Below are positions 2,140-17,485 of a DNA stretch of 17,485 nt, piece after piece (position 1 is the first letter of the stretch; each line of letters begins with the position of its first letter). The stretch comes from Breznakia blatticola (GTDB lineage Bacteria > Bacillota_I > Bacilli_A > Erysipelotrichales > Erysipelotrichaceae). The position numbers and the translations under genes are program-made. Below the pieces are notes generated by a model. The model saw only the letters and a program-made list of their open reading frames with translations. It had not been told where the DNA came from and ran no database searches. The stretch is from NCBI RefSeq assembly GCF_004365815.1, contig NZ_SODD01000048.1, positions 1 to 17,485 of the forward strand, read 5' to 3'.

Positions 2140-2148
2140 ATTGTAACA
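2140..2148 (-). promoter_or_regulatory. Candidate extended -10 promoter (TGtTACAAT) for the two-component operon
   Basis: Minus strand reads TGTTACAAT about 22 nt upstream of the regulator ATG, immediately downstream of the glmM terminator. The -35 position is only a T-run. Confidence 0.35.
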
Positions 2149-2162
2149 AAATTATGTGATAG

Positions 2163-3527: not shown

Positions 3528-3540
3528 AATACTCTTCTCC

Positions 3541-4896
3541 TCACTGAATCTGTAATTCTATTTCTTCATTTTCTAATTTATAACGTAATTGGTTGTTTGT
3601 GTTTTTTAATTGTAAGCGGATTGTATACGTTCCAGGTGCTTCACATTCTTGTAAATCTGCAACTAGATAAATATCCTCTGCTTTTAGTTTATCAATTACA
3701 CTTTCCAAACCACTTACGGTTACCTGTTGTTTCAACGTATCTCCATTAAGTACCCCTAAATCATCTTTTAAATTTGTAAAACGAACGGGTACATCATCAA
3801 ATGTTTTTGTTTTCCCTTTTCCAAAGTTAACTTTCACACTTAATGTTAATGTGTCCCCTTTAACTGCAGTTCCATTTGGTAGTTTTACTGGAACTGTTAC
3901 TGTTTTTGTGCTCATATCTTTGGTTACATTGTTTAATGGAATACTTACAGATAATTCATTTAAATTATCCAAGACTTTAGTTGAACCATAGATGGTTACT
4001 TCTTCTTGATCAAGTTCAAAACTTGAAATTGCGACATCTTCTGGCAGTTCACCAGTAAAGTCTAATTTTATTGGCACAACTTTATGTGGTGAGCTTACAG
4101 CTACTTCAACTCCAACTGTTGCAGGCAGTATATCCACAGCTAGTCGATCTCCATTTGCATTGTATGCAACAATTTGGGCATCTTGTCTAAAGTCTGCCTT
4201 TTTATCTGCAACGTCAATTAATGCTTTCACATATGCGATTTCTTGCATACGTTCATCACTGGCACGAATGATAACTTCGTTTTGATCAAACACTGGTTCA
4301 GATAAACTATAAATATCATCCATTTGGTTCATATTTACAAAATCATAACCAAGTGAGAAACTACGACTGACTTTTTTTCGTACCGTAACTAAAGCCACTG
4401 ATGGGTTGACGCTTACATCAACCTTATCTGAGAAGTTTAATGGAACAAGTTCTACTTCGTATGTCCCAACTCCTTTATCACTCAAGTTTGCCATAACTTG
4501 ATAATTGTCTTTTCTTTGACTTGCGTATTGTACATCACCAGCATCACCAGTGATAGTTACTGTGACTGTTTCAGGTAAGTCAATTACTTCATATTCTGAT
4601 GAAGAAATATTGGTTACTACTGGAATATCTTTTACATCTGTTGCTGAACGAATTTGATTTGTAAAGATATTTCCTTCAATATCTTGTGAGACAACTGCAA
4701 ATAGTAATGCGGCAATGGCTACTGCAATCACTTTTGCATACCGTTGACTAAAGAGGATGCGATCCACCCATTTCGAAACGATTCCAAACAAACGCAACAC
4801 GACTTGTTCAGCTTTTGAGTACGTGTTCTTAAATGAAGTTGTACTTTTTACAATTGGCTTTGGAATTTCCGTTTTTCGTGTTCTATTTTTTCGCAT
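3541..4896 (-). CDS. cdaR: CdaA regulatory protein CdaR (YbbR-repeat protein)
   Basis: 451-aa ORF with a basic N-terminus, a single TM segment (YAKVIAVAIAALLFAVV), then a long beta-rich extracytoplasmic region with repeated roughly 80-90-aa YbbR-like modules. Perfect SD (AAAGGAGGAAAG) inside the cdaA 3' end, with a 14-nt overlap with cdaA. Canonical cdaA-cdaR-glmM synteny. Confidence 0.85.
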   Translation of the reverse strand: MRKNRTRKTEIPKPIVKSTTSFKNTYSKAEQVVLRLFGIVSKWVDRILFSQRYAKVIAVAIAALLFAVVSQDIEGNIFTNQIRSATDVKDIPVVTNISSSEYEVIDLPETVTVTITGDAGDVQYASQRKDNYQVMANLSDKGVGTYEVELVPLNFSDKVDVSVNPSVALVTVRKKVSRSFSLGYDFVNMNQMDDIYSLSEPVFDQNEVIIRASDERMQEIAYVKALIDVADKKADFRQDAQIVAYNANGDRLAVDILPATVGVEVAVSSPHKVVPIKLDFTGELPEDVAISSFELDQEEVTIYGSTKVLDNLNELSVSIPLNNVTKDMSTKTVTVPVKLPNGTAVKGDTLTLSVKVNFGKGKTKTFDDVPVRFTNLKDDLGVLNGDTLKQQVTVSGLESVIDKLKAEDIYLVADLQECEAPGTYTIRLQLKNTNNQLRYKLENEEIELQIQ

Positions 4897-5872
4897 TTGT
4901 CTTTCCTCCTTTCGCCTTACCTTCTTTTGTATTTTCCTTTAAAGGTGTGCTCGGTTGAACTACAATTGCTTCTGCTTCAATTTTTGCATCTTTTTTACGT
5001 GATCTCTTTTTAATCAAAGGTTTCACTTCTTTTATTGGTACATCTTGTGTAGGTGATGCAGGTGCTTGTTGTGTTTCACTAGTTGTTGTACTTACCACCG
5101 GATCACTTGCTTGCAAGGCTCTAACAAGAGTTGCACGTAAGTTTACTGCATTTACTTGCGTCAGAACTCCTTCTTTAGCAATCGATACATTTCCAGTTTC
5201 TTCAGATACAACAATTGTTATACTGTCGGTTACTTCACTAATTCCAACGGCTGCTCTATGACGTGCTCCATATTGACGTGGGAATTCACGAGTCGTCGGT
5301 GGAAAGAATGCACTTGCACATGCAATTCGATTCCCACGAATAATAACCGCCCCATCATGTAATGGTGTTCCTTCCCAGAAAATCGTTCCTAATAATTCAT
5401 CACTTACATCTGCATCAAGTGCTGTTCCGGTTGCAATATAATCATCAAGCGAGTTGGTTTGTTCCAAACAAATCAAAGCTCCTGTCTTACTGTTTGCTAA
5501 ATCATTTGTTGAGCGAACCAGTTCATCAATCAAGCGTTCTTTTTCAGATTGATTCAAACTCGAAATACTTGTAAATGTCGTCTTTCCAAGTTTTTCTAAC
5601 AGCGAACGAACTTCAGGTTGGAAAATAATAAAGATGACCAATACTCCCCAGTTTAGAACTTGTGTAGTAATAAAGGCAATGGTACGCAACCCTAAAGTTT
5701 GCGCAATCCAGTTTATAAGTAACACAAACAAAATACCTTTCACTAATTGAATGGTTCTTGAGTTGTTTTTTACAATTTTCAAACAATAGTAAATGATGAT
5801 TGATACAACACCTACATCAAGTACAATTTTTAAAACGGCAATCAGATTGCTTAAGGTTAAGTAATTTAACAT
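4883..5872 (-). CDS. cdaA: Diadenylate cyclase CdaA (membrane-anchored, DAC domain) with an extended C-terminal tail
   Basis: Three N-terminal TM helices, then a DAC domain with the DGA (PLHDGAVII) and RHR (GARHRAAVG) signature motifs. I prefer the ATG at 5872 (GAGG SD 5 nt upstream) over the GTG at 5878 used by the ORF track. Confidence 0.93.
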   Translation of the reverse strand: MLNYLTLSNLIAVLKIVLDVGVVSIIIYYCLKIVKNNSRTIQLVKGILFVLLINWIAQTLGLRTIAFITTQVLNWGVLVIFIIFQPEVRSLLEKLGKTTFTSISSLNQSEKERLIDELVRSTNDLANSKTGALICLEQTNSLDDYIATGTALDADVSDELLGTIFWEGTPLHDGAVIIRGNRIACASAFFPPTTREFPRQYGARHRAAVGISEVTDSITIVVSEETGNVSIAKEGVLTQVNAVNLRATLVRALQASDPVVSTTTSETQQAPASPTQDVPIKEVKPLIKKRSRKKDAKIEAEAIVVQPSTPLKENTKEGKAKGGKTNAKK

Positions 5873-5894
5873 AAACACCTCATTTTCTTTTTCA

Positions 5895-5903
5895 ATTATA
5901 GCA
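5895..5903 (-). promoter_or_regulatory. Candidate extended -10 promoter (TGcTATAAT) for cdaA-cdaR-glmM
   Basis: Minus strand TGCTATAAT lies 22 nt upstream of the cdaA ATG, downstream of the maf terminator. No well-spaced -35. Confidence 0.4.
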
Positions 5904-5945
5904 TAAATCCATTATAGAATGTGAAGCAATAGAATGGGATCTCAC

Positions 5946-5972
5946 AAAAAAAGAAGCATCTACTGATACTTC
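5946..5972 (-). terminator. Intrinsic terminator after maf
   Basis: Minus strand GAAGTATC-AGTA-GATGCTTC (8-bp stem including one G-U pair, 4-nt loop) followed by TTTTTTT. The maf TAG stop sits inside the hairpin. Confidence 0.75.
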
Positions 5973-6517
5973 TTCAGTCTTTGATATAATTCTCCAATTG
6001 GCAATCCCATGATGGTAAAGTAATCTCCATCAATGGATTTCACAAATGCTTTTGCTTTTTCTTGAATTCCATAAGCTCCTGATTTATCGTACGGTGCTTC
6101 TGCTTCAATATAATCTTCAATTTCTTGATCACCCAATTCATAGAAGTATACTTCACTTACACTAGCAAAGCTTTCAACATGACCATTTGCGATAATTGCT
6201 ACTCCACTAATCACTTGATGGGATGTATTGCTATACGATTTCAACATACGAAATGCTTCATCTTTATCTTTTGGTTTTCCTAAAATTTTTCCATCTTGAT
6301 ATACAATGGTATCACAGCCAATAACAATACTATCTGGATGATCTTTAGCAACTGCAAATGCTTTTGCACTTGCTACTTCTTGAATCGCATCTCGAATATC
6401 AATTTCCATGTTGAACGTTTCTTGACTATCACTTACAATCACAGAAAACTCAAGTCCAACACTTTCCATCAATTCTTTTCTTCTTGGACTTTGACTAGCT
6501 AAAATGATTGGTTTCAT
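5960..6517 (-). CDS. maf: Maf-family nucleoside triphosphate pyrophosphatase (septum formation protein Maf)
   Basis: 185-aa ORF with N-terminal ILASQSPRRKELM, an internal GCDT motif and C-terminal KSGAYGIQ, which are typical Maf/YhdE signatures. The start overlaps the ilvE stop (TAATG). Confidence 0.9.
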   Translation of the reverse strand: MKPIILASQSPRRKELMESVGLEFSVIVSDSQETFNMEIDIRDAIQEVASAKAFAVAKDHPDSIVIGCDTIVYQDGKILGKPKDKDEAFRMLKSYSNTSHQVISGVAIIANGHVESFASVSEVYFYELGDQEIEDYIEAEAPYDKSGAYGIQEKAKAFVKSIDGDYFTIMGLPIGELYQRLKKYQ

Positions 6518-7578
6518 TAAATCTTACGTACCCATCCATATGGATCTTCAAGATTTCCCCATTGAATCCCTGTTAAGGTTTCATACAGTTTATGTGTAAT
6601 TGGTCCAGTCTTAAAGTTATTGATAATTTGTTCATTCCCTTTGTAGTTAAGTTCACCAATCGGTGAAATAACTGCAGCAGTTCCTGTTCCAAATGCTTCT
6701 TGTAGTTTTCCTGTTTTTGTCCACTCCATCAAATCGTTAATATCGATGTGTGTTTCTTTTACTGTGTAACCCCAATCACGAAGGATACGAATACATGAAT
6801 CTCTAGTAATTCCAGGCAATACACTTCCTTCTAATGGTGGTGTTAAAATTTCTCCATCTACCACAAACATAACATTCATCGTTCCAACTTCTTCTACATA
6901 TTTACGGTGTACACCATCAAGCCATAATACTTGTGTGTATCCTGCATCTTGTGCTTTTACTTGTCCAATGATACTTGCTGCATAGTTTCCACCACACTTA
7001 GCAAATCCTGTACCACCAACAACCGCGCGTACATATTCATCTTCTACGAAGATTTTTACTGGGTTTACACCTTCAGGGTAGTATTGTCCAACTGGACTTA
7101 AAATTACCATGAATTTATATGATGTTGCTGGGTGTACTCCAACAGCTGCTTCTGTAGCAAAACAGAATGGACGAATATATAATGAGGTTCCTTCGCTTGT
7201 AGGAATCCAGTCTTTTTCATAACGTACCAGTTCTTCTACTGCTTCAACGAAAATTTCTTCAGGTACTTCTGCCATACATAAACGTTCATTACTTTTTTGC
7301 ATACGTAAGGCATTCATTTCTGGACGGAAGATCAGAATATCATCACCATTACGGTAGGCTTTCAATCCTTCAAATGTTTCTTGTGCATAATGCAATACCA
7401 TGCTTGCAGGATCCATTGGAATTGGTCCATAAGGTATAATTTGTGCATTGTGCCAACCTTCATCTACACTCCAATCCATCATAAACATATGATCTGTATA
7501 GTACTTACCAAATCCTAAGTTTTCTTCATCCGCAGGTTTTGCTTTTAATGTTTCTGCTTTGGTGATTTTTATATTCAT
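6517..7578 (-). CDS. ilvE: Branched-chain amino acid aminotransferase (class IV PLP enzyme)
   Basis: 353-aa ORF with EGLKAYR, LYIRP, KCGGNYAAS, EEVGTMNVMF, LPGITRDS and FGTGTAAVISP motifs characteristic of Firmicute IlvE/YbgE-type BCATs. SD AAGGGGGA upstream. Confidence 0.93.
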   Translation of the reverse strand: MNIKITKAETLKAKPADEENLGFGKYYTDHMFMMDWSVDEGWHNAQIIPYGPIPMDPASMVLHYAQETFEGLKAYRNGDDILIFRPEMNALRMQKSNERLCMAEVPEEIFVEAVEELVRYEKDWIPTSEGTSLYIRPFCFATEAAVGVHPATSYKFMVILSPVGQYYPEGVNPVKIFVEDEYVRAVVGGTGFAKCGGNYAASIIGQVKAQDAGYTQVLWLDGVHRKYVEEVGTMNVMFVVDGEILTPPLEGSVLPGITRDSCIRILRDWGYTVKETHIDINDLMEWTKTGKLQEAFGTGTAAVISPIGELNYKGNEQIINNFKTGPITHKLYETLTGIQWGNLEDPYGWVRKI

Positions 7579-7629
7579 ATTCGCTTCCCCCTTTTTATCT
7601 ATATTTGATAATATTTTACGCTTCTTTTA

Positions 7630-8337
7630 TTAAGAATACAATACTAGGCTAACTTTCTTTCTTCGTAGTAAATACACGAAACAAATGATGCCAATTAGAA
7701 CAAAGAGTCCAACAAACACCACAAGAATTCTTGTAACAAGTGCTTGGAAAACTGCTTCTGGTAACATGCGAATCATAAAATCAGTCGCTGGATTTAATAA
7801 CCACAAATCATTACTGAAGAACACACCATGAAACGATGTCCAAAAACTACTGAAATCGACTGCTGCATATAATCCAAGTGCACCCAAACATATGACAAAA
7901 ACAATACTCATTCGTAAATACCCAACGCTAAATACACTCATAAAATCTTTTGGTGCATCAACCAATACAATTAACAATAAACATATCGCAAAAATGATAC
8001 AAATTATTGCTACCATGCGAAAATCTAAATATAAGTCTTTTACATCTACCATATGTTTCGCTTCTTTTTCATTAAACATATCTCTTGTTTCTTCTTGATA
8101 CGTAATTTCAGTGTAGATATCTTCACGGTTTCCTTGAATGTAACTTAATAGATTTTCCATCGATGTTTGATAATCATTTTCACTCACATGCATACGTTGG
8201 TGAATACCCAGTCGTGCATCTTGTTTTGCATAAAAACTACTGTTAAGGGCAAATCCTTGGATACAACCAAAAAGTACACCTATCCAGATGCACAAAGCTA
8301 TAATTGCACTTAAACATACTTTTAATCCATATCTCAT
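7630..8337 (-). CDS. TIGR01906/DUF1461-family integral membrane protein (same family as lipoprotein intramolecular transacylase Lit)
   Basis: N-terminal TM, an extracytoplasmic segment containing FNEKEAKHMVDVKDLYL (the E..HM.DVK motif I associate with this family), then 3-4 C-terminal TMs. I favour the ATG at 8337 (MRYGLK...). The ORF-track start (TTG at 8361) lies inside the glmS terminator T-run. Neither start has an SD. Confidence 0.6.
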   Translation of the reverse strand: MRYGLKVCLSAIIALCIWIGVLFGCIQGFALNSSFYAKQDARLGIHQRMHVSENDYQTSMENLLSYIQGNREDIYTEITYQEETRDMFNEKEAKHMVDVKDLYLDFRMVAIICIIFAICLLLIVLVDAPKDFMSVFSVGYLRMSIVFVICLGALGLYAAVDFSSFWTSFHGVFFSNDLWLLNPATDFMIRMLPEAVFQALVTRILVVFVGLFVLIGIICFVYLLRRKKVSLVLYS

Positions 8338-8352
8338 AGTTCTATTATACGC

Positions 8353-8385
8353 AAAAAACAAAAAAGAGAAAGGTGAAACACCTTT
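8353..8385 (-). terminator. Intrinsic terminator after glmS
   Basis: Minus strand AAAGGTG-TTT-CACCTTT (7-bp stem) followed by CTCTTTTTTGTTTTTTG. The stem begins within the glmS TAA stop. Confidence 0.65.
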
Positions 8386-10201
8386 ACTCTACGGTTACTG
8401 ATTTTGCAAGGTTTCTTGGTTGGTCGATTTCACAACCACGTAAGTTTGCCACTTGATAACTTAATAACTGTAATGGAACAACGCCTACAATACCTTGAAT
8501 TAAACGATTTACCTTAGGAATACTAATTTTATAATCATAGTAATCTTGTGCAACTTGTAAGTCTTCACGCACAACTAATATCACATTGGCTCCACGAGCT
8601 TTTACTTCTTTGATATTACTTATTGTCTTTTCATATAAACGCTCTTCTGTGCAAATCGCTACAACTGGCGTTCCTTTTTCAATTAATGAAATCGTTCCGT
8701 GCTTTAATTCTCCTGCTGCATATGCCTCACTATGAATATATGAAATCTCTTTTAGTTTTAAGCTACCTTCCATGCAAAGTGCATAATCTAAGCCACGTCC
8801 AATAAAAAATACATTGTTGTGGCGAGAAATGATTTTTGCAGCTTTGACATATTGCACATCATCAATCATATGTTGTAGCATATCCGGCAGTTGTTGAATC
8901 TCTTTAATGATTTCATTTGCTTGTGCTTTACTTACTTTACCATGTACATACGTAAGATTTAATGCCACTAAAGATAATAATGCTACTTGTGTACAATATG
9001 CTTTAGTCGTTGCAACTGCAATTTCAACTCCTGCATGTGTATATGCAACATACTTCGCTTCACGAGCAATACTACTTCCTACCACATTTACTATAGCCAT
9101 CGTATCAACACCTTGTTGTTTCGCTAATAATAAAGCTGCTAAACTATCTGCAGTTTCTCCACTTTGACTTACCACTAGTACAAGTGTATTTACATCATAG
9201 ATTGGATCTTTATAACGATATTCACTTGCAATTTCTACATCGACACGAACACGCGCAGCCGATTCAATTAAACTTTTTGCGATCATTCCTGCATACATTG
9301 CACTACCACAAGATACAATATGAATTTGTTGGTATTTTGATAAATCAGGTAGTGATGCTACAAGTTGATCAATATCATCTTGTACATAACTAAACATGGT
9401 TTCACGAACCACCCGTGGTTCTTCATGAATTTCCTTTAACATAAAATGTTCATATCCATCTTTAGCAATTGCACTTGCATCCATCGTTGCCGTTTTAACT
9501 TCATAATCAACGGCATCTAAATCAAGTGTATACACTTGAATTTCATCTTTACGAAGTACTGCAATTTCATCTTGATCAAGTAAAATATACTGTTTTGTAT
9601 ATTTCAAAATAGCTGGCACATCGCTTGCGATATAATTCTCATTTTCACCAACAGCAACAATCAGTGGTGAATTTCTACGCATCGCATACAGTGTATCTTG
9701 TTCATCTGAAAAAATAATTCCAAAGGCAAATGAACCGCGAAATGCTCGATTGGCTTCTTGCAATGTTGCTAGTTTATCTAAGCCTTTTGCATACACATAA
9801 TCAATATACGCTGCTGCAATTTCTGTATCTGTTTCACTTTCAAAGACATAGCCTTGTTTCAACAGTACTTCTTTTAGTTCCCCATAGTTTTCAATGATTC
9901 CATTATGAACTAATGTCACCTTGCCATGATGATGTGGGTGCGCATTACTTTGATTTGGGATTCCATGAGTTGCCCAACGTGTATGTGCAATTCCTAATAC
10001 ACTTGATGGTACTTGCAAATCCTGAATCTTCTTTTCCAGATTTGCCACTTTTCCGCGTGTTTTTATTACACGCACTTCTCCATTGACGATACTCGCCATT
10101 CCCGCTGAGTCGTATCCACGATACTCAAGCGACTTTAAGCCGTCCAAAAGGACTTGGTTTGATTTGGGGTTTATTCCAACATAACCTACAATTCCGCACA
10201 T
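8384..10201 (-). CDS. glmS: Glutamine--fructose-6-phosphate aminotransferase (isomerizing)
   Basis: 605-aa ORF starting MCGIVGY (N-terminal nucleophile Cys2), followed by two SIS domains and the C-terminal LAKSVTVE typical of GlmS. SD GGAGGAAAAG upstream. Preceded by a glmS ribozyme. Confidence 0.97.
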   Translation of the reverse strand: MCGIVGYVGINPKSNQVLLDGLKSLEYRGYDSAGMASIVNGEVRVIKTRGKVANLEKKIQDLQVPSSVLGIAHTRWATHGIPNQSNAHPHHHGKVTLVHNGIIENYGELKEVLLKQGYVFESETDTEIAAAYIDYVYAKGLDKLATLQEANRAFRGSFAFGIIFSDEQDTLYAMRRNSPLIVAVGENENYIASDVPAILKYTKQYILLDQDEIAVLRKDEIQVYTLDLDAVDYEVKTATMDASAIAKDGYEHFMLKEIHEEPRVVRETMFSYVQDDIDQLVASLPDLSKYQQIHIVSCGSAMYAGMIAKSLIESAARVRVDVEIASEYRYKDPIYDVNTLVLVVSQSGETADSLAALLLAKQQGVDTMAIVNVVGSSIAREAKYVAYTHAGVEIAVATTKAYCTQVALLSLVALNLTYVHGKVSKAQANEIIKEIQQLPDMLQHMIDDVQYVKAAKIISRHNNVFFIGRGLDYALCMEGSLKLKEISYIHSEAYAAGELKHGTISLIEKGTPVVAICTEERLYEKTISNIKEVKARGANVILVVREDLQVAQDYYDYKISIPKVNRLIQGIVGVVPLQLLSYQVANLRGCEIDQPRNLAKSVTVE

Positions 10202-10254
10202 ATTTACTTTTCCTCCACGATAAAAAAGCCTTTTTTAAAAGGTCTACTTTTGTT

Positions 10255-10395
10255 GTGGTGGCAAAGTAATTTTTAAACCCTATTATATTGGTCTTTGTTT
10301 TACTTCTAACGAATCACCATATCCGCGATAGTACCCGCCGAAACTTTCGATAACTACCGACCTCGTCAACAACCTATGTTGTCCTGGCGCTGATT
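10255..10395 (-). ncRNA. glmS ribozyme (GlcN6P-dependent cis-regulatory ribozyme-riboswitch) in the glmS 5' UTR
   Basis: Minus-strand RNA reads A|GCGCCAGGAC AACAUAGGUUGUU GACGAGG UCGGUAGUUAUCGAAAGUUUCGGCGGGUACUAUCGC .... This matches the conserved core as I recall it from B. subtilis (AGCGCC.GAAC, P1 hairpin, GACGAGG, UUAUCGAA.UUUCGGCGG). A peripheral P3/P4-like helix follows (GGUG...AGAAGUAA...UUACUUU..CCACC). The predicted cleavage site is between 10391 and 10390. Confidence 0.9.
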
Positions 10396-10419
10396 ATGCA
10401 ACTGGCATAACTGGTTTCC

Positions 10420-10448
10420 ATTATAAAGAATAAATACTCAAAAGTCTA
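10420..10448 (-). promoter_or_regulatory. Candidate sigma-A promoter for the glmS ribozyme-glmS transcript
   Basis: Minus strand TAGACT - 17 nt - TATAAT. The -10 lies about 28 nt upstream of the ribozyme cleavage site. Confidence 0.45.
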
Positions 10449-10472
10449 CTGCAACTACAACATCTACGTATG

Positions 10473-10494
10473 AAAAAAGCTACCCGAAGGTAGC
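10473..10494 (-). terminator. Intrinsic terminator after the PII-like gene
   Basis: Minus strand GCTACC-TTCG-GGTAGC (perfect 6-bp stem, UUCG tetraloop) followed by TTTTTT, 3 nt after the stop codon. Confidence 0.85.
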
Positions 10495-10497
10495 AAA

Positions 10498-11199
10498 TTA
10501 TTCTTCATTTTGTAATTCTAAACCACTAACAAACTGAGCAGGCAAAGTAAATATCACCTTTTCACGGTCTTCAGCTAGTGCTTGCATCACCGCATTTGCA
10601 ATACGATCTTTTTCATGACTTGCAACTAAAATTGTGGTTACATCTTTTTTATCCTGTAATGACATACCAAAGAATTTTCCAAGTTCTTTACTTCCTTTTC
10701 GTAATGCATGGAACGTTGTTCCACCAGTTGCACCTGCTTCACGCGCAGCTTCCATGATTTGTTCGTTTCGTCCTTCTTCACTCAAGATGACAAGTAATTC
10801 ATGATTTGATTGTGTTTCCATAGTTTCTCCTGTTATATCATTTTGCCACTTATGTGCAATTTTCTTATCTTTACAAATTGTAGGTACCATCATTGATGAA
10901 ATTGGAATTGAAAATGCAATTCCTGCACCACGTCTAGCTAAGTGCAAATGTTCACTTAGATGACGAATGACAAGTGGAACCCACTGTTTCACCATAAAGC
11001 TAATCACAAAATCATTTTCAATATCACCTAATCCCAACAAATCCATCATCGATGTGCTTGCTGTTCCCTTAGCTTTGATGACAAATTGGCGAGGGACACG
11101 TAATTCACGTAATGCATCAGTTACAATTTTTCGTCGTTTATGATTCACGATAACAACAAGGACATGTAAATCCTGAAAACGAGCATCTAGTTGTTCCAT
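10498..11199 (-). CDS. Tandem (two-domain) PII-like signal-transduction protein, function unknown
   Basis: 233-aa soluble ORF made of two ~93-aa halves (res ~11-103 and ~133-225). Each has a beta-alpha-beta / long loop / beta-alpha-beta pattern. Half 2 resembles GlnB/PII (LLVILS...IMEAAREAGATGGTTFHALRKG...VTTILVAS...IANAVMQAL...VIFTLPA). Half 1 aligns but is degenerate (VLVVIVN...VTDALRELRVPRQFVIKAKG...). SD GAGGAGGA sits inside the upstream gene and the junction reads TAG-ATG. Confidence 0.7.
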   Translation of the reverse strand: MEQLDARFQDLHVLVVIVNHKRRKIVTDALRELRVPRQFVIKAKGTASTSMMDLLGLGDIENDFVISFMVKQWVPLVIRHLSEHLHLARRGAGIAFSIPISSMMVPTICKDKKIAHKWQNDITGETMETQSNHELLVILSEEGRNEQIMEAAREAGATGGTTFHALRKGSKELGKFFGMSLQDKKDVTTILVASHEKDRIANAVMQALAEDREKVIFTLPAQFVSGLELQNEE

Positions 11200-12714
11200 C
11201 TATTCGTCCTCCTCTCCAAGCAAAACAGGAAACGAATCTGCTTCTGTTGCTTTTGATTTAAATAATCGAACATTGGTTGAATAAATCAACCCTAATACTT
11301 GCACCGCAATAAGTGGTACAACTGCGACCATTGCCACAATCCCAAAGGCATCACTCATGATATTTCCACCGACAGCTTCACAAGCTCCCATCGCAAAGGG
11401 AAGTAGGAATGTAGAAGTCATGGGTCCACTTGCAACTCCACCACTATCGAAGGCTATCCCTACATATATTTTAGGCACAAAGAAACTTAATGCCAAGGCA
11501 ATTCCATATAATGGAATTAAAAACCACATAATGTGAAGTCCTGTAAGTACACGTAACATCGCTAAACCAACCGAGATAGCAACTCCAATGGATAAAGTAT
11601 ACTTCAATGCTTTTGCGGATATTTCTCCATCAGATACATCTTCAACTTGTTTATTTAACACATGTACAGCAGGTTCAGCTGCCACAATAAAGTATCCAAT
11701 TAACATCCCAAGTGGAATTAGTAAAATTCGTAAGTTTTCACTTGCAAGTTCACTACCAAGTAGTTTCCCTACCGGAATAAACCCTGCATTTACTCCTGTT
11801 AAAAACAAGACCAGTCCAGCAAAGGTATAGATAAATCCAACACTCATTTTCATCAGTTGTCGTTTTCGAAATTGCTTTGTGAATAGTTGAAACAAAATAA
11901 ACACTATACCTAAAGGCAATAATGCACGTGCGACTTCACCTACAATAATTGGTAATTCATGTGCAAAGACTTTTGCGACATCCTGCATCGTATCAAGTTG
12001 TGGCACAATTACTGGATCGTAGGTTGCTTCACTTGGATGATAGATAATTCCAAGTAACATCACAGCGATAATAGGACCAATACTACATAAAGCAACAAGT
12101 CCAAAACTGTTCTCATTGGCATCTTTATCATTGGAGCGACTTGCTAGACCAACTCCAAGTGCCAAAATAAAAGGCACAGTGATTGGACCGGTTGTTACTC
12201 CTCCTGAATCAAAAGAAACCGGTAGAAAATCATCAGGAACAAATATTGCTAATGCAAACACAAATATATATAAGCCGATAACGAGCTTCGAAAATGAAAC
12301 TTGAAAGATAATTCGTAAAATCGCAATTACCAAAAAGACCCCAACTCCAGCTGCTACTGTGAAAATAATAACATCATCTGGAATACTTGCTACTTGACTA
12401 GCAAGTACATCTAAATCTGGTTCTGCAATGGTAATTAGAAATCCCATCAAAAATGTTGAGAGAATAATCATCCATATCTTTTTCGCTTTTGTAAATTTCG
12501 AACCAATCGCTTCACCCATTGGCATCATCGACATTTCAACACCTAAAGTAAATAAACCCATACCCACGATTAATAATACTGCTCCCACAAAAAATAAAAG
12601 TACCGTATCAGTTGATAGTGGCACTACAAAAATACTTAGGAAAAGTACAATTAACGTGATTGGTAAGACTGAGGACAACGCTTCAGATATTTTTTCTTTT
12701 AGTTTTTTATTCAA
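11200..12714 (-). CDS. Polytopic membrane protein with two DUF1538-type repeats (putative transporter/channel, uncharacterised)
   Basis: 504-aa, highly hydrophobic ORF with a TTG start 7 nt after GGAGGTGA. Clear internal duplication: GMGLFTLGVEMSMMPMGEAIGS / AGLVLFLTGVNAGFIPVGKLLGS; ITIAEPDLDVLASQV / IVAAEPAVHVLNKQV; VSFDSGGVTTGPITVPFILALGVG / IAFDSGGVASGPMTSTFLLPFAMG; FGLVALCSIGPIIAVMLLGIIY / FGIVAMVAVVPLIAVQVLGLIY. The DUF1538 assignment is from memory of this family and its usual PII-gene neighbour. Confidence 0.7.
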   Translation of the reverse strand: MNKKLKEKISEALSSVLPITLIVLFLSIFVVPLSTDTVLLFFVGAVLLIVGMGLFTLGVEMSMMPMGEAIGSKFTKAKKIWMIILSTFLMGFLITIAEPDLDVLASQVASIPDDVIIFTVAAGVGVFLVIAILRIIFQVSFSKLVIGLYIFVFALAIFVPDDFLPVSFDSGGVTTGPITVPFILALGVGLASRSNDKDANENSFGLVALCSIGPIIAVMLLGIIYHPSEATYDPVIVPQLDTMQDVAKVFAHELPIIVGEVARALLPLGIVFILFQLFTKQFRKRQLMKMSVGFIYTFAGLVLFLTGVNAGFIPVGKLLGSELASENLRILLIPLGMLIGYFIVAAEPAVHVLNKQVEDVSDGEISAKALKYTLSIGVAISVGLAMLRVLTGLHIMWFLIPLYGIALALSFFVPKIYVGIAFDSGGVASGPMTSTFLLPFAMGACEAVGGNIMSDAFGIVAMVAVVPLIAVQVLGLIYSTNVRLFKSKATEADSFPVLLGEEDE

Positions 12715-12742
12715 CCAATCACCTCCATATATTTATGTATAT

Positions 12743-12771
12743 ATTGTAACATGAGGGCAATTTCATATCCA
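12743..12771 (-). promoter_or_regulatory. Candidate promoter (TGGATA - 17 nt - TACAAT with TGn extension) for the DUF1538/PII-like operon
   Basis: Minus strand ...TGGATATGAAATTGCCCTCATGTTACAAT.... The extended -10 TGTTACAAT lies about 28 nt upstream of the TTG start, giving a very short leader. Confidence 0.45.
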
Positions 12772-12816
12772 TTCATCCACTTAAACAATTACAAGATTCA
12801 GATAGCGTTCACAAAC

Positions 12817-12850
12817 AAAAAAAACACCCCTCTTACGTGTAAGAATGGTG
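12817..12850 (-). terminator. Intrinsic terminator after tRNA-Leu
   Basis: Minus strand CACCATTCTTA-CACG-TAAGAGGGGTG (about 11-bp stem with one mismatch and one G-U pair) followed by TTTTTTTT. Confidence 0.8.
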
Positions 12851-12863
12851 TAAGTATTTCTAT

Positions 12864-12949
12864 TGGTGCACGGAAAGGGACTTGAACCCTCACGGACGTA
12901 CGTCCACTACCCCCTCAAGATAGCGTGTCTGCCATTCCACCACCCGTGC
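12864..12949 (-). tRNA. tRNA-Leu (anticodon GAG), class II with long variable arm, CCA encoded
   Basis: Hand-folded as GCACGGG TG GTGGAATGGCAGACAC G CTATC TTGAGGG GGTAG TGGACGTACGTCCGT GAGGG TTCAAGT CCCTT TCCGTGC ACCA. It has a 7-bp acceptor stem, anticodon loop TT-GAG-GG, a 15-nt variable arm (GGACG/CGTCC) and a TTCAAGT T-loop. Length 86 nt. Confidence 0.93.
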
Positions 12950-12962
12950 GTTATTTCCATCT

Positions 12963-12990
12963 ATTATACACGATTTTAAATTGTTATCAA
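12963..12990 (-). promoter_or_regulatory. Sigma-A-type promoter for tRNA-Leu (TTGATA - 16 nt - TATAAT)
   Basis: Minus strand TTGATAACAATTTAAAATCGTGTATAAT. The -10 ends 13 nt upstream of tRNA position 1. Confidence 0.55.
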
Positions 12991-13009
12991 AGGGTGAATA
13001 CGTTATAAT
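12981..13009 (+). promoter_or_regulatory. Sigma-A-type promoter for proBA (TTGTTA - 17 nt - TATAAT)
   Basis: Plus strand TTGTTATCAAAGGGTGAATACGTTATAAT. The -10 ends 24 nt upstream of the proB ATG, with SD GAGGTGG in between. Confidence 0.55.
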
Positions 13010-13033
13010 TATGAAAAGTTGAGGTGGACAGAA

Positions 13034-13813
13034 ATGAAACGAATTGTAATTAAAGTCGGCTCGAGTACGATTACGCACAAGAGCGGACTACTAAACCTAA
13101 AGAAGGTTGAAGAACTTACTAAGGTCATTAGTGATCTAAGTAACATGGGAATGCAAACCATTCTTGTCTCTAGTGGAGCAGTTGCTGCTGGAATGGGACG
13201 AATGAATATGAATGAAAAACCCGACTCTGTCCCCGAGAAACAAGCACTTGCATCTATTGGTCAATGTGAATTGATGTATATCTATGATAAATTCTTTTCA
13301 CAATTTGGCAAAGTAGTTGCGCAAATGTTAATGACAAAGCGTGTGCTTGAAGTAGACATGCTTCGTCAAAATGCCATTCGCACATTAAACCAATTACTAA
13401 GTTATAACGTCGTTCCTATTATCAATGAAAATGATAGTGTAGCAACCGAAGAACTCGTATATGGGGATAATGATACGCTTGGTGCCATTACTGCAGAATT
13501 AATCCAAGCAGACTTACTTCTTGTATTAAGTGACATTGATGGCTTATACGATAAAAACCCAAATATGCACGCTGATGCAAAACTAATCCCAGTTGTAGAT
13601 GAAATCACATGCGATATTGAAGCAATGGCTGAAGATACTTCAACGAAAGTTGGAACAGGTGGAATGATCACCAAACTTCAAGCTGCTAAAATTGCTACTG
13701 AAGCAAACTGCGATATGATTATTTGCAACAGCAAAGACTTGCGCGTAATTTATGATGCCGTCGAAGGAAAACAAGTCGGTACATTGTTCAAAAGGAGAAG
13801 TTCTTATGAATGA
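13034..13813 (+). CDS. proB: Glutamate 5-kinase (short form, no PUA domain)
   Basis: MKRIVIKVGSS..., SSGAVAAG, NENDSVATEE, GDNDTLGA, LSDIDGLY and GTGGMITKL motifs. I place the start at ATG 13034 (GAGGTGG SD 6 nt upstream) rather than the TTG at 13019 in the ORF track. Only ~259 aa, so the C-terminal PUA domain of E. coli-type ProB is absent. Confidence 0.93.
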   Translation: MKRIVIKVGSSTITHKSGLLNLKKVEELTKVISDLSNMGMQTILVSSGAVAAGMGRMNMNEKPDSVPEKQALASIGQCELMYIYDKFFSQFGKVVAQMLMTKRVLEVDMLRQNAIRTLNQLLSYNVVPIINENDSVATEELVYGDNDTLGAITAELIQADLLLVLSDIDGLYDKNPNMHADAKLIPVVDEITCDIEAMAEDTSTKVGTGGMITKLQAAKIATEANCDMIICNSKDLRVIYDAVEGKQVGTLFKRRSSYE

Positions 13814-15050
13814 ACTACAAACTAAAGGAAAACTATGTAAAGAAGCAAGTTGGGAGTTAATGAATCTTTCAACTGACACAAAAAATGAGATTCTTGCCGC
13901 AATTGCAACATCATTGATGAAACACGTTGATGATATTCTTGCCGCAAATGCTAAAGATGTTGAAAATGCAGAAGCAAATGGACGTCCTGAAGCATTCATT
14001 GATCGTTTAACATTGGATGAAGCAAGACTGAGTGCAATTGTAAATGGTGTAAACCAAGTAATTTCACTCGAAGACCCAAGTAATAAAATTATCGAAACAT
14101 GGCCACGTGAAGAACTATTCATCAGTAAGAAAAGCGTAGCAATTGGTGTCATCGGAATGATTTATGAAGCACGACCTAATGTAAGTGTGGATAGTGCATC
14201 ACTTTGTTTAAAAAGTGGAAATGTTTGTTTCCTACGCGGAAGTAAAGATACTATCTATTCAAACATAGCACTAGTAAAAGCGATGAAAGAAGGAATTACT
14301 AATACTGGATATAATGAGCACTTTATTGAATTGCTTGAAGATACATCTAGAGAAAGCGCTACTGCATTTATGAAACTTAACGAATATTTAGATTTACTGA
14401 TTCCTCGCGGAGGAGCAAATCTTATTCAAAGTACCATTGCAAATGCGACAGTCCCTATCATTGAAACAGGAACTGGAAATTGTCACGTGTATGTAGACAA
14501 AGAGTTTGACGCAACAAAAGCACTTGCTATTATTGAAAATGCAAAAACACAACGTGTGAGTGTATGTAATGCTTGTGAGAGTGTTTTACTACATAAAGAT
14601 ATTGTAAATCCATTTGCACACAATCTAATCAAAATGTTGAAACGTCACCATGTAATTATTCATGGAGATGAAATCATTCAAGGCTTTGATGATAGTGTTC
14701 TAGCAGCTAATGAAGAAGACTATGGAAAAGAATATCTTGATTATGAAATTAGTATTAAAGTTGTGGATGATGTCAATGAAGCAATCCGACACATCAACCA
14801 CTATAGTACACACCATTCAGACGTGATTGTTACTGAAAACAGTGACAACATGGAAGCTTTCTTAAATCAAGTTGATAGTGCAGTTGTTTATGCTAACGCA
14901 TCAAGCCGCTTCTCTGATGGAGAGGAATTTGGTTTTGGTGCTGAGATTGGTATTTCAACACAAAAGATTCACGCTCGTGGTCCTATGGGCTTAGAAGCAC
15001 TAACAAGCTACAAATATATCGTTAAAGGAAACGGTACCATTCGTAAATAG
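13806..15050 (+). CDS. proA: Glutamate-5-semialdehyde dehydrogenase (gamma-glutamyl phosphate reductase)
   Basis: Starts MNELQTKGKLCKEAS (ATG 13806, SD AAGGAG upstream, 8-nt overlap with the proB stop: ATGAATGA). Aldehyde dehydrogenase-type motifs IYEARPNV, LRGSKD, LIPRGG and VCNACESVLLH (catalytic Cys), plus HHSD and the C-terminal GxG...IRK typical of ProA. Confidence 0.94.
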   Translation: MNELQTKGKLCKEASWELMNLSTDTKNEILAAIATSLMKHVDDILAANAKDVENAEANGRPEAFIDRLTLDEARLSAIVNGVNQVISLEDPSNKIIETWPREELFISKKSVAIGVIGMIYEARPNVSVDSASLCLKSGNVCFLRGSKDTIYSNIALVKAMKEGITNTGYNEHFIELLEDTSRESATAFMKLNEYLDLLIPRGGANLIQSTIANATVPIIETGTGNCHVYVDKEFDATKALAIIENAKTQRVSVCNACESVLLHKDIVNPFAHNLIKMLKRHHVIIHGDEIIQGFDDSVLAANEEDYGKEYLDYEISIKVVDDVNEAIRHINHYSTHHSDVIVTENSDNMEAFLNQVDSAVVYANASSRFSDGEEFGFGAEIGISTQKIHARGPMGLEALTSYKYIVKGNGTIRK

Positions 15051-15097
15051 AAAAAAAGCGAAATTGATCAACAACATGATCGATTTCGCTTTTATAT
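15051..15097. terminator. Bidirectional intrinsic terminator shared by convergent proA and the lipoprotein gene
   Basis: AAAAAA-AGCGAAATTGATCA-ACAACA-TGATCGATTTCGCT-TTT. The stem is 14 bp with one G-U pair, flanked by an A-run on the left and a T-run on the right, so it reads as hairpin plus U-run on both strands. Confidence 0.75.
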
Positions 15098-15100
15098 GTT

Positions 15101-16276
15101 TTAGTAACTTTCGTATGTTTCTGAATATCCGTCGTAATAAACGTATACCTCATCATCACCATCAACTACTGTATAATATGCACCATAGATTGTCCAAGTA
15201 CTTGTATCTAACCCAGCTAGTTCATCACTATCTGATTCAACTTTAATTTCCACTTCTTCACCAGCACCAATTGATCCTTCGTAAGAAATATCTGCATAAT
15301 CAGCGTCGTATTCGTATTCAATTTCAATATCACCTACAGCGTATTTTGAGTTGTTTTTTACTTTTGCTGCAATGAATGTTTTTCCATTTTCTTCAATAAC
15401 TTTTAAATCAGAAACAGCAAGTTCATCAATTTTCACGATTGCATCTTTACTTGCCATACCAAATTCATCTACAGGAACTTCAAAGTCTTTTACATCATTG
15501 ATTTTTGTGACTTTGATATCAAAGTATGCTTCATTGATTTCAATAGAATCCTCTGCTTTGTCTTCATCAAGCATACTTCCCATTTGTTCTTTTAATGCAT
15601 CTAACATTGGTTTTTCTAAATCCATGTAAATACGTGCAAGTTCTCCACCATCTTGGTAGTACTCAACTTCTACAGGAATTTTAAAATCTTCCCCTAACAT
15701 TCCGCTAGCTGCATTGTCGCTTCCCATTGAGCTTGATAATGCGCCAAACATTTCTTCATCGATTTCACCTTTTAATTTGTAGGTTTTCTTACCATCAACT
15801 TCACCAGTTCCATCTTTTTTTAATTTAAAGTCAGTTAAATCTGTAGCATCTGGACCAAGTGTGTCAGCTCCATTTGATGCTGCTTCTTCAACTGTCCAAT
15901 CATCACCATCTTTTTCTTTAGAAGCGGTGTACATTGAACCATCTTCTTCAAACATGTACATTTCCATTGATGTTTTTTCATTCATCCCAAAAGCTTTAAT
16001 TGATACATCTGTTGTTCCGTGTGCTTTGTTGTCTTTTTCGAAATAGTCCATATCCATGTCCATTCCCATTTTGACTGCCACTTTCGAACCATCGATATTA
16101 ACTGCGACATCAATATTCATTTCCATATCTAAATGTCCTGATTCGATATCTTTTGCTTTCTTCGCACCTGTTTCAACAATTTCTTCTGCGCTTGGTCCTG
16201 ACGAACCTGAACATCCTGTCATGATCACAGAGAACATAACTAACATGCTCACTAATAGTAATTTTACTTTTCTCAT
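15101..16276 (-). CDS. Acidic, Met-rich lipoprotein of unknown function
   Basis: 391-aa ORF with a type II signal peptide, MRKVKLLLVSMLVMFSVIMTG|CSGS (lipobox M-T-G-C). The mature protein is visibly rich in D/E and M (HLDMEMNIDV, KMGMDMDMDYF, SMEMYMFEEDGSMY). The C-terminal ~110 aa are beta-rich and very acidic (IEIEYEYDADYADISYEG...DGDDEVYVYYDGYSETYESY). SD AGAGGGA. Confidence 0.8.
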   Translation of the reverse strand: MRKVKLLLVSMLVMFSVIMTGCSGSSGPSAEEIVETGAKKAKDIESGHLDMEMNIDVAVNIDGSKVAVKMGMDMDMDYFEKDNKAHGTTDVSIKAFGMNEKTSMEMYMFEEDGSMYTASKEKDGDDWTVEEAASNGADTLGPDATDLTDFKLKKDGTGEVDGKKTYKLKGEIDEEMFGALSSSMGSDNAASGMLGEDFKIPVEVEYYQDGGELARIYMDLEKPMLDALKEQMGSMLDEDKAEDSIEINEAYFDIKVTKINDVKDFEVPVDEFGMASKDAIVKIDELAVSDLKVIEENGKTFIAAKVKNNSKYAVGDIEIEYEYDADYADISYEGSIGAGEEVEIKVESDSDELAGLDTSTWTIYGAYYTVVDGDDEVYVYYDGYSETYESY

Positions 16277-16345
16277 TTGTTTCCCTCTTTCTTAAACACT
16301 AATTCGTATCAATAATACGATTCTATTATTAGACACTCTATACTT

Positions 16346-16374
16346 ATTTTACACATAGATAGCTAAAATATCAA
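16346..16374 (-). promoter_or_regulatory. Candidate sigma-A promoter for the lipoprotein gene (TTGATA - 17 nt - TAAAAT)
   Basis: Minus strand TTGATATTTTAGCTATCTATGTGTAAAAT. It predicts a ~60-nt 5' UTR containing a small hairpin (TCGTAT-TATTG-ATACGA, 16304-16320). Confidence 0.5.
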
Positions 16375-16387
16375 ATCATCTTTATAC

Positions 16388-16414
16388 AAAAAAGCTGCAT
16401 GATTCTTATGCAGC
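16388..16414 (-). terminator. Intrinsic terminator after the lipid kinase gene
   Basis: Minus strand GCTGCAT-AAGAATC-ATGCAGC (7-bp stem) followed by TTTTTTG. The TAA stop (16406-16408) lies in the loop. Confidence 0.75.
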
Positions 16415-17314
16415 AGTTTCATTCATTTTTGGCAAGTATAGTGTAATTTGTTTTTCTAAGATTTCAATCACAGGATCTTTGACTTTAATTGTCTCACCAT
16501 CCATATTCAATACAACTTCTTTCTTTCCTATAATTTGCATTTTTTTACATCGAAATTCTTTCACAAAATCAAAACTTCGATGTTCACCTGCTTTATATTT
16601 TTTAATCAATGTCATTACACGTAGGCGACTTAATGCATCAATGGTAATCACATCAATAAAACCATCATTAATTTTAGCATCAGGTGTTGGGTGAAATCCG
16701 CCACCATAGTAACTTCCATTTGCCGCAACAATAAAAATATAGTTCTTATAGCCAATATATGTATCATCAATTTTTAATGCTTGATGAAACTTCATCGATG
16801 CTAAGAAACTATTAAATACACTTAAGATATATGCAAATCCACCATTCACAAAAGGTAAGCGTTTAAAACGCGCAACTTTTTGCACAACGCGTGCATCAAA
16901 TCCAACCGATGCAATATTCAAGCACACACGGTTATTGGAATAGATTAGATCACATGGCAAATCTTGACCATCTTTATATCCCTCTAAATTTAAGAAATCA
17001 TCTTTTGAGATTTTCTTGAAGAATTTGATAAAGTCATTTCCAGTACCAATTGGTATTAGAGCTAACTTTGCATTCTTATATTTATACATCCCATTTACTA
17101 CTTCATTTATCGTCCCATCTCCACCACAAGCAAAGATGATCATTTCTTCTTTTGTTGATGCATACATCATTGCAATTTCTGTAGCATGTCCTGGATATCT
17201 TGTATATTCAACAATGAAGTCTGTATCCTTAAAGACACTACGAATTTCATTATCCAATTCGACTTTACTCTTTTCTTTTCCAGCTTCTGGGTTTATGATA
17301 AAGATATATTTCAT
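16406..17314 (-). CDS. Diacylglycerol kinase-family lipid kinase (DagK/YegS/DgkB-like)
   Basis: 302-aa ORF starting MKYIFIINPEAGKEK. Nucleotide-binding signature ACGGDGTINEVVNG, IPIGTGNDF, and a C-terminal beta-sandwich region ending with an MDGE motif (NMDGETIKV). SD AGGAGAA 7 nt upstream. Confidence 0.88.
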   Translation of the reverse strand: MKYIFIINPEAGKEKSKVELDNEIRSVFKDTDFIVEYTRYPGHATEIAMMYASTKEEMIIFACGGDGTINEVVNGMYKYKNAKLALIPIGTGNDFIKFFKKISKDDFLNLEGYKDGQDLPCDLIYSNNRVCLNIASVGFDARVVQKVARFKRLPFVNGGFAYILSVFNSFLASMKFHQALKIDDTYIGYKNYIFIVAANGSYYGGGFHPTPDAKINDGFIDVITIDALSRLRVMTLIKKYKAGEHRSFDFVKEFRCKKMQIIGKKEVVLNMDGETIKVKDPVIEILEKQITLYLPKMNETAA

Positions 17315-17419
17315 GGGTATATTCTCCTGTTATGAAGTGACCATTGTCAAGAGTAAATTTACATTCATAATAACCTTAATTATTAAATTTTCATCAATGG
17401 CACATAAAAGCCCCGAATA

Positions 17420-17485
17420 AACAAGATCTTATCGACAGTTAACCACTCTGTTATTCTAGGATTGGTTACCTCAGGTTAATGGCCT
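17420..17485 (-). ncRNA. Possible 3' portion of RNase P RNA (rnpB), truncated by the window edge
   Basis: Minus strand reads ...GGCCAUUAACCUGAGGUAACCAAUCCUAGAAUAACAGAGUGGUUAACUGUCGAUAAGAUCUUG. By eye this resembles the 3' conserved regions of bacterial RNase P RNA as I remember them (B. subtilis ...AUUGCCGCCUGAGUACGAGGUGAUGAGCC...GGAACAAAACAUGGCUUACAGAACG...; E. coli ...ACAGAACCCGGCUUAUCGGUC...). Only ~65 nt are visible, so this is tentative. Confidence 0.35.

Follow-up and report, generated by a model that had tools for sequence, protein, structure and literature searches.

A DUF1538 membrane protein paired with a tandem PII-like protein in Breznakia blatticola: a candidate PII-regulated cation/proton antiporter

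PII proteins that plug transporters, as GlnK does with AmtB and SbtB with SbtA, represent a classic form of metabolic transport control, and few such pairs are understood. A stretch of 17,485 nucleotides (nt) of Breznakia blatticola DNA (Erysipelotrichaceae; NCBI RefSeq assembly GCF_004365815.1, contig NZ_SODD01000048.1, positions 1 to 17,485), referred to below as the window, carries two adjoining genes that raise the question of whether they form a further pair of this kind. The first encodes a 504-amino-acid (aa) membrane protein with two DUF1538 units, the second a 233-aa protein with a predicted PII-like fold. An earlier note, made from the letters of this DNA and a list of its open reading frames (ORFs), had read them as a self-contained module in which a transporter of unknown substrate is served by a dedicated PII-type regulator, and had proposed cyclic di-AMP (c-di-AMP) as a ligand to try first. 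Here we describe the two proteins, the extent to which their pairing is conserved, and what the pair might carry and sense. The membrane protein consists of two DUF1538 repeats in a predicted inverted topology, its partner has a predicted PII-like fold, and the two are found together across many phyla; we lean towards a reading in which they constitute a cation/proton antiporter-like transporter and its regulatory subunit.

The two proteins of the unit

The 504-aa protein matches Pfam PF07556 (DUF1538) over two stretches (E 1.3e-143, 475.9 bits, cut-off 22.6) and its two halves are collinear and 30% identical to one another (E 5e-32), bearing out the fused double DUF1538 protein that the earlier note had predicted. 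Close DUF1538 relatives number more than 8,000. The nearest NCBIfam models are UmpA (NF041627; E 5.8e-56, 189.5 bits, with the equivalog cut-off of 490 not reached) and UmpB (NF041628; E 1.2e-42, 146.2 bits, with the equivalog cut-off of 500 not reached); judged by these matches, the protein is a homologue of UmpAB and not an equivalog. Two over-long DUF1538 proteins in the database, P0078 (692 aa) and P0090 (560 aa), contain exact internal segment duplications and are probably assembly artefacts.

UmpAB of Halomonas zhaodongensis is a pair of DUF1538 proteins that form a heterodimer (PMC5484666). It rescues the Escherichia coli strain KNabc on media with NaCl or LiCl and under alkaline conditions, and in everted vesicles it displays pH-dependent Na+(Li+,K+)/H+ antiport (PMC5484666). 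The DUF1538 family thus has a characterised cation/proton antiporter member, which the earlier note had not known of, and this makes its wording of an unknown substrate too strong. UmpAB is active in KNabc without a PII partner, and the paper makes no mention of one (PMC5484666); that it works alone fits a regulatory, rather than a catalytic, role for the PII-like protein. In addition, a machine-learning study of growth pH counts DUF1538 among its predictive gene families (PMC13255231).

An AlphaFold 2 model of the 504-aa protein is all-helical (predicted local distance difference test score, pLDDT, 81; predicted TM-score, pTM, 0.80). Its helix breaks coincide exactly with two invariant motifs, FDSGGVTTGP (residues 168-177) and FDSGGVASGP (residues 422-431), and short helices are seen at AEPDL and AEPAV. 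The EP and D-x-G-G-V motifs are also present in the split forms of the family described below, in which the two DUF1538 units are separate proteins. The conserved carboxylates E98, D100, D169, E347 and D423 are predicted to lie at helix breaks, a position that would suit the binding of cations or protons.

The orientation of the two repeats can be read from the distribution of positive charge. Counts of Lys plus Arg in the loops, taken over 80 fused homologues, alternate along repeat 1 (3.2, 0.03, 2.9, 0.09, 2.2, 0.4 and 1.9), and in repeat 2 run 3.5, 0.3, 1.6, 1.0, 0.7, 0.03 and 3.5, placing equivalent loops of the two repeats mostly on opposite sides of the membrane. Since this bias is opposite, the positive-inside rule indicates that the DUF1538 repeats are oppositely oriented, and the A and B subunits of the split forms display the same opposite bias. 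Inverted repeats of this type are the usual design of alternating-access secondary transporters. A sequence search of the PDB with the membrane protein found no chain matching at E <= 10, and a fold search of the PDB with its model gave no match (best E 0.02, TM-score <= 0.22), a result to be read with the proviso that Foldseek may miss a likeness between helical bundles and that the query is itself a model at pLDDT 81.

The 233-aa partner is a divergent member of its family, 25-34% identical to most of its relatives. The family is a broad one: among clusters formed at 50% identity, the PII-like profile collects 4,906 at E <= 1e-3 and 1,001 at E <= 1e-30. Pfam P-II (PF00543) matches residues 135-222 (31.9 bits, cut-off 25). 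The AlphaFold 2 model, built on 38 homologues (pLDDT 79.5, pTM 0.78), contains two beta-alpha-beta-beta-alpha-beta (ferredoxin-like) domains, at residues 11-99 and 133-225, with a disordered linker between them; each has a loop of low pLDDT between strands 2 and 3 (residues about 46-59 and about 167-183). When Foldseek was run against the PDB, the best matches, domain by domain, were all GlnK, GlnB or SbtB (probability 1.00, target TM-score 0.58-0.73), with SbtB showing the highest identity of the top matches (22-24%). The family profile aligns both domains to canonical PII chains weakly (E 0.1-0.2). As modelled, the protein consists of a pair of diverged PII-like domains within a single chain. 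Among PDB sequences, the PII-like profile matches chain H of 9p1x best (E 0.005), a single entry in which a 105-aa 'P-II family nitrogen regulatory protein' is present as 12 chains.

In canonical PII proteins the nucleotide site is formed between subunits, with the T-loop base, K58 and the B-loop supplied by one subunit and the G27-T29 strand by its neighbour. Across 116 tandem homologues of the 233-aa protein, the near-invariant positions of the N-terminal domain are G45, T46 and A47 (the base of the T-loop-like loop), G56, K62 and G93 (at the B-loop position), and those of the C-terminal domain are G143, A152, G156, A157, G159, G160, T161, G178 and E184, with G156-T161 corresponding to a GAxGGT strand. 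Both motif sets are retained in the single-domain partners of split forms and in both domains of tandem proteins from Peptostreptococcales; the subfamily to which this protein belongs has one motif set per domain. Its N-terminal domain keeps the T-loop base, together with the K58 equivalent and the B-loop glycine in most family members, and its C-terminal domain keeps the GAxGGT strand. The fact that each domain keeps one of the two sets suggests the presence of one composite site between the domains of a chain. At the B-loop positions, where canonical GlnB and GlnK have T-G-x-x-G-D-G-K-I-F, the N-terminal domain has RRGAGIAF and the C-terminal domain EDREKVIF. The motif around Tyr51, Y-[KR]-G-[AS]-[AE]-Y, is not present in the 233-aa protein.

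Conservation of the pairing in fused and split forms

We surveyed the fused form with hidden Markov models built from our own alignments, taking one genome per species and the best 80 of more than 596 relatives. These 80 loci belong to Clostridia, Synergistaceae and Spirochaetes, including Breznakiella. In 79 of them the transporter gene is followed immediately, on the same strand, by a full-length tandem PII-like ORF; at the remaining locus the contig ends at the transporter gene. The relatives of the PII-like protein at 25-34% identity in Treponema, Anaerotruncus and Mailhella are all encoded directly after a fused DUF1538 gene, with stop and start codons overlapping and with wholly different flanking genes, and a fused transporter followed by a tandem PII protein (222 aa) is also annotated in Paraclostridium and Peptoclostridium (RefSeq). 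Natural fusions of DUF1538 to PII were absent from the best 120 DUF1538 and the best 150 PII-like matches.

Clustering of the flanking ORFs revealed no third conserved gene, with no other family present in more than 4 of the 80 fused loci, in line with the two-gene module of the earlier note. As the fused form has no further recurrent neighbour, we take the proximity of cdaA in the window to be coincidental. A functional linkage of the pair to cdaA, glmS or proBA was considered and rejected, as these are not recurrent neighbours in the 80 loci.

Two of the fused loci have peculiarities of their own. In an Oscillospiraceae metagenome-assembled genome (L011), the only locus of the 80 with a gap inside the pair, a 261-aa ORF at 5531-6316 (+) lies between the DUF1538 and PII-like genes and carries motifs resembling those of aminoglycoside phosphotransferases (HGDFCFPN..., GYIDLGRAGIGDKW). 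The tandem PII-like gene of Mobilisporobacter senegalensis DSM 26537 (L063, 5522-6206 (+)) takes the form of two ORFs, one for each domain, which overlap and are read in different frames; this could be a true division into two single-domain genes or the effect of a frameshift.

The pairing also exists in a split form. By tblastn against plasmids, Methylocystis rosea and Chelativorans were found to carry two DUF1538 genes (about 230-245 aa) followed by a single PII gene of 112-122 aa, annotated in RefSeq as 'P-II family nitrogen regulator'; one such A, B and PII set from Methylocystis is WP_124740560, WP_124740561 and WP_124740562. Starting from the split B subunit, a scan of metagenomes then provided 80 loci, in which the genes invariably follow one another as A (N-half type), B (C-half type) and one C-terminal-type PII domain; the single PII gene is found downstream in 75 of the 80, the other five contigs ending before that position. 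The same A-B-PII arrangement was seen in Povalibacter, in a Nitrobacter-type contig and in Vicinamibacterales, and the pairing as a whole extends to Alpha- and Gammaproteobacteria and Acidobacteria. The conservation that the earlier note had anticipated in related genomes therefore holds well beyond them, and both of the forms it had suggested looking for exist, each with a PII gene. In our samples the fused transporter is always accompanied by a tandem PII protein and the split transporter by a single one; as a single evolutionary event may explain this match, we do not count it as independent co-variation.

The surroundings of the split forms do have recurrent members. A type II P-type cation ATPase is repeatedly found upstream and a tandem universal stress protein (Usp), likely another nucleotide-binding regulator, downstream, giving a recurrent set of P-type ATPase, DUF1538-A, DUF1538-B, PII and tandem Usp (L095, L096, L171 and L173; Proteobacteria, metagenomes). 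These ATPases score best against Ca2+-type models, and one split locus has a CPA2 exchanger with TrkA domains nearby.

Layout of the unit and its neighbours in the window

In B. blatticola the two genes form a self-contained unit bracketed by terminators (Table 1). The earlier note had placed both ORFs exactly, and its descriptions of the TTG start behind a ribosome-binding site, of the direct junction between the genes with a ribosome-binding site inside the upstream one, and of the terminator with a GC stem and UUCG loop all agree with what we find. The start codon is backed by homology: the N-terminus of the 504-aa protein, MNKKLKEK, matches the family consensus, with N2, L5, E7 and K8 invariant in 27 homologues, and because of this agreement we take the TTG start to be right. 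At the junction, the TAG stop of the 504-aa gene abuts the ATG of the 233-aa gene with no gap, and GAGGAGGA (11207-11214) sits within the upstream gene; stop and start codons likewise abut or overlap in the pairs of Treponema, Anaerotruncus, Mailhella, Paraclostridium and Peptoclostridium. The terminator hairpin begins 3 nt past the stop codon of the 233-aa gene and folds at -9.8 kcal/mol (z = -4.8), which none of 200 shuffles could equal. On the other side of the unit, the sequence from 12812 to 12863, which includes the hairpin that follows tRNA-Leu(GAG), folds at -12 kcal/mol (z = -2.8), and this hairpin likely insulates the two genes from upstream transcription. The promoter that the earlier note proposed does exist as a site, but its class is not enriched: the window contains 12 promoter-like sites, against 10.0 expected from shuffles. 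Since such sites are equally frequent in shuffled sequence, this promoter is plausible, not demonstrated.

Table 1. Coordinates in the window of the two genes, of the repeats and domains they encode, and of the flanking signals.
Feature	Position	Strand	Details	Basis
tRNA-Leu(GAG)	12864-12949		upstream of unit	
Hairpin with U8 tail after tRNA-Leu(GAG), likely terminator	12816-12851 (about)	-		RNA fold
Promoter-like site	12743-12771	-	TGGATA, 17-nt spacer, TACAAT, extended TG	9/12 matches
Ribosome-binding site and start codon	12712-12726	-	GGAGG 12722-12726, 7-nt spacer, TTG 12712-12714	sequence
Fused DUF1538 (UmpAB-family) membrane protein gene	11200-12714	-	504 aa, TTG start	ORF list, Pfam PF07556
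DUF1538 repeat 1	12040-12714	-	aa 1-225; seven predicted membrane segments, N-terminus cytoplasmic, C-terminus outside; AEPDL (97-101), FDSGGVTTGP (168-177)	
DUF1538 repeat 2	11275-11943	-	aa 258-480; predicted inverted, N-terminus outside, C-terminus cytoplasmic; AEPAV (346-350), FDSGGVASGP (422-431)	
Candidate translational coupling region	11197-11214	-	GAGGAGGA 11207-11214, TAG 11200-11202, ATG 11197-11199	sequence
Tandem PII-like protein gene	10498-11199	-	233 aa, ATG start	ORF list, Pfam P-II, AlphaFold 2, Foldseek
PII-like domain 1	10903-11169	-	aa 11-99; T-loop-like loop about 46-59, B-loop-like segment RRGAGIAF	
PII-like domain 2	10525-10803	-	aa 133-225; motif AAREAGATGGT, T-loop-like loop about 167-183	
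Intrinsic terminator	10473-10494	-	GCUACC-UUCG-GGUAGC (10479-10494) and U6	scan and fold

Directly downstream of the terminator of the pair, and upstream of glmS (8384-10201), lies a glmS ribozyme at 10253-10402 (-) (61 bits, E 3.7e-12), the only Rfam match in the window at gathering thresholds. The ribozyme and glmS start a separate unit, and a promoter-like site (TAGACT, 17 nt, TATAAT) is present at 10420-10448. Within 2190-8361 (-), glmS and cdaA-cdaR-glmM are set apart by genes encoding a lipoprotein transacylase of the Lit family, a class IV aminotransferase and Maf, inserted, unusually, into a neighbourhood in which cdaA-cdaR-glmM-glmS commonly stand together, and glmM is followed by a response regulator and a histidine kinase (61-2117). 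Divergent from the pair, at 13019-15050 (+), are a proB-like (amino-acid kinase) and a proA-like (aldehyde dehydrogenase family) gene, whose reading frames, as called, share about 60 nt. An antisense ORF of 170 aa at 13640-14152 (-) has no family match and is probably spurious.

A regulated transporter, its rivals and its known counterparts

Taken together, we think it on balance probable that the two genes constitute a translationally coupled operon for a cation/proton antiporter-like transporter and a dedicated PII-like subunit that regulates it, the latter probably binding an adenine nucleotide. In such a system the 504-aa protein would be a single-chain version of a heterodimer of the UmpA/UmpB type, with inverted repeats of seven segments each, in which the Glu-Pro motif and the helix-breaking Asp-Ser-Gly-Gly-Val motif of each repeat would be the likely ion and proton sites. 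By homology to UmpAB, its most likely activity would be the antiport of a monovalent cation (Na+, K+ or Li+) against H+. The PII-like protein would most likely bind an adenine nucleotide, as in the analogous pairs GlnK-AmtB and SbtB-SbtA, and its two flexible T-loop-like loops would dock on the cytoplasmic face of the transporter, opening or blocking it in response to the cell's energy or signal state. The core of the earlier note, a transporter with a dedicated PII-type regulator, stands as the best model on this account. We infer the substrate from one characterised homologue and the genes that neighbour the split forms, and physical binding, ligand, gating and the direction of regulation by analogy.

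Several observations weigh against this reading. On the side of the transporter, the substrate is taken from one study of a homologue of about 30% identity, and the scores against UmpA and UmpB are far below the equivalog cut-offs (189 vs 490 and 146 vs 500). As a further clue to the substrate, riboswitches and other regulatory RNAs were sought, and none was found by Rfam at gathering thresholds upstream of the DUF1538 genes of 15 fused and 19 split loci. On the side of the regulator, canonical PII proteins are homotrimers with three ATP/ADP/2-oxoglutarate sites between their subunits, as opposed to the two-domain chain seen here, and Pfam misses the N-terminal PII-like domain. The earlier note had expected two DUF1538 matches and two PII matches, and its tandem PII-like protein is upheld by the fold predicted for both domains (AlphaFold 2, Foldseek); the profile search returned the two DUF1538 stretches and a P-II match in the C-terminal half, but none in the N-terminal half. 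Because BLASTP gave no alignment between the N- and C-terminal domains, their tandem nature rests on the predicted fold and the profile alignment. The canonical B-loop motif GDGK is not present in the 233-aa protein. Residue 62 is Asn, against Lys in 90% of the 116 homologues, and residues 184-186 read K184-K185-D186 in place of the E-K-E of the family, with K184 replacing a near-invariant Glu. The nearest named relative (Erysipelotrichaceae bacterium MTC7, 72% identity) shares the deviations at residue 62 and at 184-186, and this lineage may have undergone a change in ligand specificity or in constraint.

A bolder version of the same model, which we put forward tentatively, is that DUF1538 represents a transporter fold lacking a solved representative, and that the PII-like partner would be the first non-trimeric, two-domain PII regulator, matched one-to-one to the repeats of the transporter, with a single composite ligand site between its domains controlling the plug.

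Among the alternatives, the one that fares best concerns the substrate: the physiological substrate may be an ion other than Na+ or K+, or a small metabolite. Bicarbonate, ammonium, divalent cations and organic acids would be candidates, and the alkali-cation antiport of UmpAB would then be a side activity that the KNabc screen brought out. Of the PII-gated transporters already known, AmtB carries ammonium and SbtA bicarbonate, and the P-type ATPases beside the split forms are closest to Ca2+-type models. The membrane protein is, moreover, unusually conserved, with about 60% identity to its relatives across phyla, which suggests a specific and important substrate. Antiport by UmpAB itself comes from a single functional study, by heterologous complementation and everted vesicles, although that study did establish pH-dependent Na+, Li+ and K+/H+ antiport together with salt and alkali rescue (PMC5484666). 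The membrane-embedded Glu and Asp residues conserved at the predicted helix breaks suit cation or proton binding, and the split forms sit among cation-homeostasis genes. We consider a different physiological substrate unlikely.

A second alternative concerns the ligand, and starts from the position of cdaA (4883-5878): as the earlier note pointed out, cdaA-cdaR-glmM lies 4.6 kb downstream of the pair on the same strand. In this case the PII-like protein would be a c-di-AMP receptor and the pair a c-di-AMP-gated exporter of K+ or other cations, belonging to the osmotic-homeostasis regulon of Bacillota. PstA/DarA and SbtB are known to bind c-di-AMP, which also controls the K+/H+ antiporters CpaA and KhtTU, and it is SbtB that has the highest identity among the best structural matches of the 233-aa protein. 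The adjacency of cdaA is, however, not conserved, being no exception to the lack of recurrent neighbours in the 80 fused loci. Furthermore, there was no match to PstA/DarA (PF06153) at E <= 0.1, the sequence matches in the PDB at E <= 10 included no chain of PstA, and Alpha- and Gammaproteobacteria and Acidobacteria commonly carry the same pairing. To our knowledge these groups mostly lack diadenylate cyclases, which implies that c-di-AMP cannot be the ancestral ligand of the pairing. A lineage-specific switch to c-di-AMP may have taken place; as a lead for this locus, the proposal of the earlier note is not supported by our analysis, and we regard c-di-AMP gating as improbable.

Finally, it seems very unlikely that the PII-like protein serves the transporter as a constitutive structural component, or helps to assemble or stabilise it, instead of acting as a ligand-responsive regulator, since, although near-obligate co-occurrence and translational coupling suggest a fixed stoichiometry, and although the canonical B-loop is missing and each domain of the subfamily retains part of the nucleotide-site motifs, UmpAB works in E. 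coli without such a partner, and the GAxGGT strand and the T-loop-base glycines, which correspond to elements of the PII nucleotide site, are near-invariant in the 116 homologues, pointing to a retained ligand site.

Gut Clostridia, Spirochaetes and Synergistetes commonly carry the pair, and its split form occurs in soil Proteobacteria and Acidobacteria. If the regulated antiporter that we favour is correct, it would reveal how many anaerobes couple cation and pH homeostasis to their energy state. It would also represent a new architecture of PII signalling, in which tandem domains are docked on an inverted-repeat transporter. What is new here is the pairing of DUF1538 with PII and the tandem PII architecture, for both of which our literature search found nothing; antiport by a DUF1538 member was already known, and the UmpAB paper (PMC5484666) is the only functional report on DUF1538 that the search returned. 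The transporter family combines one functional report with the lack of any solved structure and with a predicted fold that has no structural match. With small genes, a self-contained operon and an E. coli KNabc assay that already works for a homologue, the model is easy to test.

How does this pair compare with systems already known? UmpAB is the closest counterpart of the membrane protein: it belongs to the same Pfam family, it has two homologous DUF1538 units, and its A-then-B order corresponds to the N-half followed by the C-half of the fused protein. It differs in having separate subunits, where the B. blatticola protein is one fused 504-aa chain. The small multidrug resistance (SMR) pairs of the EmrE type and Fluc/CrcB, together with the fused inverted-repeat proteins descended from such pairs, resemble DUF1538 in being built from oppositely oriented homologues, and the fused form keeps the opposite orientations in its repeats; they are nevertheless unrelated, with four-helix units, whereas DUF1538 units have about seven segments and a PII partner.

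Among PII-type regulators, PstA/DarA shares with the 233-aa protein a PII-like fold and a Bacillota genome that encodes CdaA, but not a sequence-family match, and we know of no PstA/DarA protein paired with a transporter gene. SbtB regulates the Na+/bicarbonate symporter SbtA and binds ATP, ADP, AMP, cAMP and c-di-AMP. It is thereby a PII-like regulator that serves a single neighbouring secondary transporter coupled to a cation, the role that we assign to the 233-aa protein by analogy. In the case described here the partner is a DUF1538 protein and not SbtA, the architecture is tandem, and, in place of the C-terminal redox R-loop of SbtB with its Cys pair, the protein ends in ...GLELQNEE, a C-terminus without cysteines. 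GlnK-AmtB offers another parallel, with a PII-fold gene directly beside, and co-transcribed with, a transporter gene, with flexible T-loop-like loops (predicted in our case), and with GlnK structures as the best structural matches of the 233-aa model. AmtB has a different transporter fold, however, and GlnK is a 112-aa subunit of a trimer with a GDGK B-loop and the Tyr51 motif, whereas its counterpart in B. blatticola is a two-domain chain of 233 aa without either.

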